Assembly (NCBI GenBank): GCA_976226885.1 | Contig: OZ320313.1 | Location: forward strand, 107,942,001 to 108,006,000 | Origin: Iphione sp. A-MEVVRFRX5 | Taxonomy: Eukaryota | Reading direction: 5' to 3' | DNA length: 64,000 bases | Shown here: piece by piece, positions 54,444 through 54,995 of the stretch | How the letters are laid out: the number at the start of each line of letters is the position of its first letter | Numbering within the stretch: position 1 is the first letter of the stretch | Notes under the pieces: model-generated | Told to the model about the DNA's origin: nothing | The model's input: the letters and a program-made list of their open reading frames with translations, nothing else | Databases searched by the model: none | Position numbers and translations under genes: made by a program

Positions 54444-54995
54444 TTTGCGGTTACCCAAACCGAAGGATGACGCTGCCGTTTTGCGTATACCCAAACCCAG
54501 ATGGATCGCATTGCGGAGTCTTTTCGCTATCAACAATGTTGTTGAGAAATCGAGCAGAAGGCAATGCTGTCATCTTGCGTACACCCAAACCACAGTCCAG
54601 CCAAATAGAGGAATACAGAACATATCGTTTGCGTAAACCCAAATGATGGGTTCGAGAGTATTGCAACAACCGGAAGTGGACAACCAAAACGTCCGGTTCG
54701 AGGCTAGCATGACATAGATACAAGAACCGAAGAGATCGATGGTGCATCGCTGGGGAATAAATTTAGTGATTCACCTTGATGCCGGAACTCAGCGACGATT
54801 GATAAGGAGCTAACAGGGTTTTGGATACACCCAAAAACAAGAGGGACCCTGCACCGACCGGTAGGAAGCCGACACAAGCTTGAAAACGAGAAGAATCCAG
54901 TGACGCTCGATGCAGGATCGGCACGAATTTGGGTATACCCGAAAGACCGAGTGAGTGTCAACGACGAGGCCAATATCAATTTGCGTATACCCAAT
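54444..54995. promoter_or_regulatory. Array of seven 16-bp quasi-palindromes TTTG[CG]G-N4-CCCAAA between the divergent accessory genes
   Basis: Copies start at 54444, 54480, 54574, 54628, 54820, 54928 and 54980; the same motif occurs five times per LTR. Confidence 0.8.

Follow-up and report, generated by a model that had tools for sequence, protein, structure and literature searches.

The window (the whole stretch of 64,000 nucleotides that was analysed) contains a Ty3/Gypsy LTR retrotransposon on the plus strand (47417-58207), recognized by the PR-RT-RH-IN order of its pol domains, paired TG...CA LTRs, a primer-binding site, a polypurine tract and gag. The 5' LTR (47417..48129, plus strand) is 713 bp long, has TG...CA ends and differs from the 3' LTR (57495..58207, plus strand) at 1 position. 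Its U3 region holds a 72-bp tandem array of 3.8 units (47421..47696, plus strand), and TATAAA (47906) and AATAAA (47930) signals follow at 47906..47935 on the plus strand; both signals recur in a fragment of a related LTR at about 26.9 kb. The primer-binding site (48131..48148, plus strand) was assigned from its sequence, the window having no tRNA gene for comparison, and is presumably tRNA-Leu-like. Downstream lie a gag-like ORF (48158..48829, plus strand) with weak DUF1759 and PNMA matches, a pol frame (48903..52598, plus strand) identified with Pfam, the best database matches of which are 47% identical, and the polypurine tract (57469..57494, plus strand). Because gag comes to a stop at 48829 and, just before pol, another frame encodes a CCHC knuckle (window positions 48829-48960), this copy of the element may not be intact. 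An inverted pair in R-U5 (47997-48009 and 48093-48105), possibly an RNA stem, is also found at about 26770-26875 and so is present in both LTR types.

An inverted partial copy of the element (41486..46677, minus strand) matches 48882-54096 at 99% and comprises pol and exon 3 of the antisense gene described below. This 5.2-kb copy lacks the site cluster, the finger ORF and the LTRs, and its break adjoins a long A/T run. The two pol copies have 20 differences, 7 of them synonymous, and the antisense-exon copies 2, which makes both pairs too close for a selection test. No target-site duplication is present at the full element, as its flanks differ; since the inverted partial copy marks the locus as rearranged, this absence bears on the insertion and not on the superfamily. 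The Gypsy copies interrupt a tyrosine-recombinase element (40083-47416 and 58208-58433) that has a phage-integrase match, that we take to be DIRS/Ngaro-like and that is bracketed by a 144-nt direct repeat (39992-40135 and 58290-58433). The related LTR fragment (26746-27170, minus strand, ends approximate) is 75% identical to the element's LTR over 120 nt around the TATA box and R; its U3 does not align with that of the element at all, and the fragment has no copy of the 16-mer discussed below. Broken endonuclease and RT frames of a non-LTR element, presumably LINE-like, lie at 32109-34931.

The end of pol and the 3' LTR are 4.9 kb apart. Directly after the pol stop, 197 codons remain open in the same frame (52599-53192) and have no family match. 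Further on, two divergent accessory genes flank a 0.7-kb gap, which the preliminary description of this DNA had missed and which is filled by an internal cluster of seven dispersed 16-bp sites (54444..54995, no strand assigned). The gap is rich in CpG, with an observed-to-expected ratio of 1.16, compared with 0.12 in the LTR and 0.50 in window positions 1-40000. In the 3' non-coding DNA (56710-57305), nested 154-167-bp and 120-bp repeats have in common a purine-rich 14-mer, present in four copies.

The antisense accessory gene (53499..54343, minus strand) is predicted to have three exons and 222 codons, starting from an ATG at 54343. Its exon phases add up in frame across donors at 54281 and 54187 and acceptors at 54217 and 54075 (minus strand); the donor and acceptor of intron 2, which holds a long T run, score strongly, and the intron 1 pair falls below thresholds. 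Upstream, 17 bp from the first site of the cluster, is a TATAAA (54421..54426, minus strand), the only one on the minus strand in the regions scanned (the 5' LTR and 53192-57494), and an AATAAA (53393..53398, minus strand) lies about 100 nt past the stop. The last 131 residues of the product are acidic and Ser/Pro-rich, and in this would resemble many activation domains. An open frame as long as the exon 3 region arose in 18 of 1000 shuffles. Searches of Pfam, a protein database and PHROGs found no homologue of the antisense product.

On the other side of the cluster, a splice-donor-like GTGAGT (55017..55022, plus strand) lies 21 bp past the last site; it scores 6.4, where scores of at least 6 have a background of 0.19 per kb per strand. 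The sense ORF that follows (55042..56160, plus strand; ATG 46 bp past the last site) encodes 372 aa and ends at a TGA, beyond which 165 codons remain open in the same frame and finish with a basic tail (56161..56658, plus strand); the TGA may be the natural end, a break or intronic. Its length was reached in 3 of 1000 shuffles. The product has two C2H2 fingers (55135-55209 and 55237-55302, plus strand), followed by a region that is acidic and rich in Pro and Ala. No other tandem C2H2 pattern occurs in the six frames of the window, and none of 2000 shuffles produced one.

Assignment of the sense product to the C2H2 class is based on both Cys2-His2 ligand sets, a beta-beta-alpha pattern, Atlas neighbours that carry zf-C2H2 and best PDB matches that are C2H2 proteins (ZBTB17, E=0.008; INSM1, E=0.009), weak as these matches are. 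The Pfam score of the ORF is below the cut-off. A predicted model shows strand-helix twice, but with a mean pLDDT of 44. Canonical DNA-reading residues are absent at helix positions -1/2/3/6 of the two fingers, which carry P,E,S,R and D,Y,A,G. Homologues of the finger ORF were found neither among the 8000 best word-index candidates, nor at E<=0.001 among 1.84 billion representatives, nor in the genome-contigs collection or PHROGs. Fold searches from low-confidence single-sequence folds (mean pLDDT 44 and 41) gave no match at E<=0.001 and carry no information, and none of five proteins looked up has an exact database record.

We confirmed that the seven internal sites start at 54444, 54480, 54574, 54628, 54820, 54928 and 54980, with the letters originally reported, and that there are ten LTR copies, five in each LTR at a 5'-to-3' offset of 10078. 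Those of the 5' LTR, at 47465, 47537, 47609, 47681 and 47701..47716 (no strand assigned to the last), are U3 sites, between 190 and 440 bp upstream of TATAAA; those of the 3' LTR are at 57543, 57615, 57687, 57759 and 57779. The preliminary description had the motif form the core of the 72-bp repeats, and this holds for four sites, one in each unit; the fifth is outside the units, 20 nt after the fourth. A palindrome, as first described, was too strict a term for what is a near-palindromic 16-mer, no copy of which is perfect and all copies of which have the same orientation. The sites are also polar: positions 5-7 of the left half deviate in nine of the ten distinct sites and the mirror positions in none, and the right half is nearly fixed.

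A scan of 63,985 positions in the window found 17 within 3 mismatches of the ideal palindrome. These are exactly the seven internal and ten LTR copies, and all are inside the one young retrotransposon; at 4 mismatches only two further positions appear, mirror copies in pol. For a non-circular control we used an LTR copy as the query, which finds 6 sites at up to 3 mismatches and 7 at up to 4 in the 814-nt internal gap, whereas 500 dinucleotide shuffles of the gap contain at most 1 and 2, respectively (mean 0.07 at up to 4). The same query finds no site at up to 3 mismatches in the 47,296 bases outside the element, and three at up to 4. A motif-blind search recovers a family of 7, compared with at most 4 in 60 shuffles. 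A matrix trained on the internal sites gives all ten LTR sites at least 18.9 bits and the best other site 10.0; conversely, with a matrix trained on the LTR sites, all seven internal sites reach at least 16.3 and the best other site 14.4.

Between internal copies (21 pairs), the core is 82% identical and the flanks are 30% identical. The sequence between copies, originally stated to be unrelated, is not entirely so: the sites at 54480 and 54574 match at 85% over 26 nt including the core. Selection on a binding site, as initially proposed, is supported by the sharp 16-bp boundaries, the decayed flanks and the occurrence of the site in two promoter-like regions. To set this against tandem duplication, as was also done, is an overstatement, because copies that all point one way and have faintly similar flanks are compatible with direct duplication, after which selection acted on the core only. 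Given the shared orientation and the one pair with a common flank, the copies probably originated by direct duplication, with selection keeping the core alone.

The same single orientation and flank-sharing pair would suit unselected relics of old direct duplications, whether a tandem array that has decayed or the outcome of template switching, or copies with a structural role, for example as small cruciforms, as would the spacing: 18 divides the LTR period and three of the six distances between internal sites. However, the 18-bp regularity was noticed after the fact and is not significant (p about 0.09), the sharp fall from core to flank is unexpected under neutral decay, and the core has stayed the same in two unlike settings. 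We consider that the copies are improbable as relics or structural repeats. At periods of 10-11 the internal sites show no helical phasing (p 0.23-0.86). The 16-mers form a real, selected and family-private site array in anatomy that had not been noted before.

Because the sites lie in the U3 of the LTR and in the internal gap, the 16-mer is best read as a DNA element serving two promoters. We assign a probability of about 0.8 to its being a protein-binding site shared by the two promoters of the element. A dimeric binder, as suggested earlier from the dyad symmetry, is plausible for this candidate site, polar as the site is.

We give little credence to the repeat acting instead in RNA, where an accessory protein would recognise a small hairpin or single-stranded motif in order to export or package the RNA, as with Rev or CERV. 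C2H2 fingers can bind RNA, the sites are strand-polar with the central four bases the most variable, and folding energies of the LTR copies are -7 to -9 kcal/mol; the spliced accessory gene of an LTR retrotransposon itself, CERV, can serve RNA export (PMC10309623). A hairpin is nevertheless disfavoured by the complete lack of compensatory changes, by a fifth pair that is broken in 5 of the 10 distinct copies and by 3 of the 7 internal copies having pairing probabilities near 0 in context. The 85% paired positions equal the shuffled mean, and the U3 copies are upstream of the TATA box. As the 3' LTR copies would sit on every transcript, the copies presumably could not mark unspliced RNA. Rfam yielded no match in the cluster and one chance-level match in pol.

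We searched for related elements with a pol-alignment scan of genome contigs, which returned 80 loci that we interpret as eukaryotic sequence present in bacterial and archaeal bins; 78 were analysed, L001 and L006 being left out. A plasmid search added only 3 stray pol matches. The 16-mer of the window has 1 isolated match at up to 3 mismatches in the 782,746 bases of the 78 loci. Of the 78, 13 have a finger ORF 3' of pol, and these 13 come from three source assemblies only: two fingers in L002, L003, L005, L014, L020 and L046, a finger profile match in L004 and L022, and a single finger in L025, L026, L029, L031 and L035. Finger matches in L027 and L074, outside the post-pol region, and an uncertain one in L037 were not counted. 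Other than in L046, these are sense C2H2 accessory ORFs just 3' of pol. An acceptor-like site precedes the finger-ORF ATG in L002, L003 and L005, and the proteins of L020, L025 and L035 have a further conserved, unnamed domain past the finger or fingers.

Textbook DNA-reading helices (R-D-N-R) are present in L002, L003 and L005. The fingers of the window and those of the relatives are weakly alike (hhalign 77%; HMM E=0.0076), a likeness that could be generic to C2H2 proteins since the HMM also matches unrelated fingers. In a quick RT-RH tree, the rows of which include no named Gypsy clade references (Mag, CsRN1, 412/mdg1), the window belongs to a group of 45 rows (SH-aLRT 95), 10 others of which carry the finger label, and its nearest row is P0002, at 64% over RT-RH. 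The finger label needs 8 changes and L046 is outside the group, so the tree does not establish a single origin of the fingers.

A blind screen of 36 post-pol regions for dispersed palindromes with independent flanks found an excess of at least 5 over shuffles in four, those of the window, L046, L045 and L079. In L046, a spliced-looking antisense finger gene is divergent from a sense accessory ORF with a histone-H3 fold, and the region has its own 10-bp palindrome in 11 copies, compared with at most 3 in 12 shuffles; this palindrome occurs 0 times in pol and once in the apparent 3' LTR. L045, from the same assembly, has a different palindrome in 8 copies, compared with at most 4 in shuffles, and cross-counts between the two loci are 2 and 0; it shows no finger pattern, and its LTR has no copy of the palindrome. 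In both of these loci an ORF with the histone-H3 fold lies between pol and the 3' LTR (L046:5732-6481, Pfam Histone E=6e-29; L045:9873-10496, E=2e-30).

Dispersed palindromes are absent (excess of at most 1) from eight of the nine other finger-bearing loci tested. Eight regions of finger-bearing relatives yielded no clear dispersed motif of any symmetry, and 7-mers common to the LTR and the pre-finger DNA are nominal in two of six only. Set against these eight loci, L046 and L045 suggest that private palindromes track with long multi-gene accessory regions and not with fingers as such. The palindrome of L079 was rejected as a TA satellite with conserved flanks, and the repeats of L007 as a satellite with conserved flanks rather than dispersed sites; in L007 (6660-20748) the LTR and a 5.5-kb post-pol region share this satellite of about 170 bp, which has a paired 15-bp near-palindrome that starts with what we take to be a YY1-like motif. 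Repeats in L010, L013, L030, L034, L038, L054 and L065 are tandem or low-complexity by their spacing, and these loci show no excess after collapsing flanks where the post-pol region is long enough for the test.

The reading that we favour, at just short of even odds, is that the element encodes the binder itself; the likeliest candidate is the finger protein, which would act in pairs and exert feedback on the internal promoter and the LTR. One sequence-specific protein would switch on two promoters: that of the LTR, through five U3 sites, the number of which the 72-bp array has raised, and a two-way internal one, through seven sites, that drives both accessory genes. Since two C2H2 fingers cover only about 6-8 bp, a finger binder would have to dimerise, each partner of the two-finger pair reading one 8-bp half. 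Basal internal transcription would produce the activator, which would raise its own promoter and then the LTR in positive feedback, possibly helped by the acidic antisense product. The sites with their confinement and position, both ORFs, the fingers and the presence of finger ORFs in several relatives are observed, whereas we infer promoter activity, splicing, protein binding, the identity of the binder and its dimerisation; activation is suggested by the acidic regions and by precedent, with repression or anti-silencing as the alternative.

This self-encoded circuit is favoured by the position of the sites between the minus-strand TATA (17 bp away) and the ATG of the finger ORF (46 bp away). 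The family specificity of the site, the recurrence of finger ORFs in relatives and the repetition of the layout in L046 would also fit an element-encoded binder. Against it would weigh the non-canonical helix code, the in-frame TGA after codon 372, the restriction of finger loci to three assemblies, the eight of nine other finger-bearing loci without palindromes and the palindrome without fingers in L045.

A host factor is a close rival, and its binding is possible to nearly the same degree, because the helices of the window fingers are non-canonical, a finger binder would have to dimerise, and fingers and palindromes are mostly uncoupled in the relatives. A dimeric or multi-finger host protein would bind at both promoters and set the tissue or stage of expression, and the finger ORF would do another job, such as RNA or protein binding. 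U3 enhancer repeats of simple retroviruses bind host factors, and the internal gap has signals of host type: a TATA box, an ETS-like CCGGAAG (54670) and, by our assignment, one exact RUNX-type hexamer (54444), the ETS-like label likewise being our own. Even so, none of eight host consensus motifs fits every site. NF-kB, the host candidate of the preliminary description, fits poorly: the NF-kB/Rel consensus GGGRNWYYCC has 2-3 mismatches in all seven internal sites and 1 in all three distinct LTR sites, and is exact in none of the ten. The sites have 2-3 mismatches to the consensuses of NFI, E2F, and GLI and KLF, and 3-6 to that of EBF; the RUNX consensus is exact in one of the ten distinct sites, and the CSL hexamer has 1-2 mismatches in all ten. 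Host binding is also at odds with the absence of the site from 47 kb of host DNA, a small sample, and with the different palindromes of the two sister elements L045 and L046 from one assembly. A search with the site strings returned no publication on such a site by title or abstract.

The layout of the element-encoded circuit has two precedents. Foamy-virus Tas is described as binding both the LTR and the internal promoter and as needing dimerisation (PMC4929722). As in foamy viruses, accessory genes here lie between the enzyme genes and the 3' LTR and have an internal promoter, in our case a predicted one (PMC4929722), and the same element occurs in the LTR U3 and in the internal promoter upstream of a candidate regulator gene. 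According to the same source, Tas is one factor acting on the LTR U3 and the internal promoter and has an N-terminal DNA-binding part (PMC4929722); our candidate would be similar, its two fingers lying at the start of the ORF. Unlike a foamy virus, the present element is Ty3/Gypsy, with no env-like ORF found, and has a predicted two-way internal promoter and a repeated 16-bp near-palindrome as its site; the candidate regulator is C2H2, with no sequence link to Tas. The ORFs scanned gave no env or Tas Pfam match that would place the element in the Spumaretrovirinae.

The second precedent is VANC, which is reported to bind family-specific motifs in the non-coding DNA of its own transposon (PMC5735166). 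The element resembles systems such as VANC of VANDAL and TnpA of Spm in combining an accessory gene with a short family-specific motif in non-coding DNA, often by way of tandem repeats (PMC5735166; bioRxiv 10.64898/2026.08.24.746577). The carriers of VANC and TnpA are plant DNA transposons, and the VANC motifs described there are 8-9 bp long and not palindromic; the present element has no VANC-type Pfam match and is not Mutator-like. Judged by layout, it would work like Tas and VANC and be a member of neither family.

Other LTR retrotransposons show parts of this anatomy. In the plant elements Retand, Grande and RIRE2, too, the stretch from pol to the 3' LTR is long; they have repeats and an antisense ORF equipped with a promoter, and a role in regulation has been proposed (PMC11963269, PMC7264820). 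They differ in carrying TRP28, which has no match here, and tandem arrays, and their accounts, as far as available, name no target site, finger gene or LTR-shared motif (PMC11963269, PMC7264820); that extra ORFs in this position serve regulation is only guessed at there (PMC7264820, PMC11963269). Among animal Gypsy-like elements, Cer1 with CERV, Oikopleura Tor and bdelloid elements with ORF3s likewise have spliced or internally promoted extra genes (PMC10309623, PMC4402516, PMC5408684), the products of which are assigned roles in RNA export or as envelope, esterase or nuclease; the term 'C2H2' is absent from the main text of PMC10309623 and PMC5408684. Burro is a further animal precedent for accessory genes (PMC6431247), and the available text of PMC8220671 has nothing on accessory genes of such elements. 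Our searches of the open literature yielded no animal Gypsy element described as having both a C2H2 accessory gene and an LTR site cognate to it; Repbase notes or supplements may annotate finger ORFs.

We propose tentatively, leaning somewhat towards doubt, a class of 'complex' animal Ty3/Gypsy elements that would have captured a two-finger regulator, expressed from the internal two-way promoter along with a second, spliced accessory gene and binding a family-private palindrome arrayed in that promoter and in the LTR. Each family (that of the window, L046 and perhaps L045) would have its own protein-site pair, a Tas-type switch and a VANC-type motif having arisen independently in env-less retrotransposons. 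In the element, a candidate regulator lies next to a candidate target that is sharply defined. If the proposal is true, transcription of LTR retrotransposons need not depend on host factors alone, and every family would offer a compact pair of protein and site. An on-switch carried by the element itself, as in some complex viruses, is thereby suggested only.

The 72-bp units of the U3 array invite one more comparison. The LTRs of murine leukaemia and sarcoma viruses likewise carry 72/75-bp enhancer units, repeated in tandem within U3 and located upstream of the TATA box. Those viral repeats are bound by host factors and, unlike the array described here with its candidate regulator, have neither an internal twin cluster nor an accessory regulator; the equal period is probably a coincidence.
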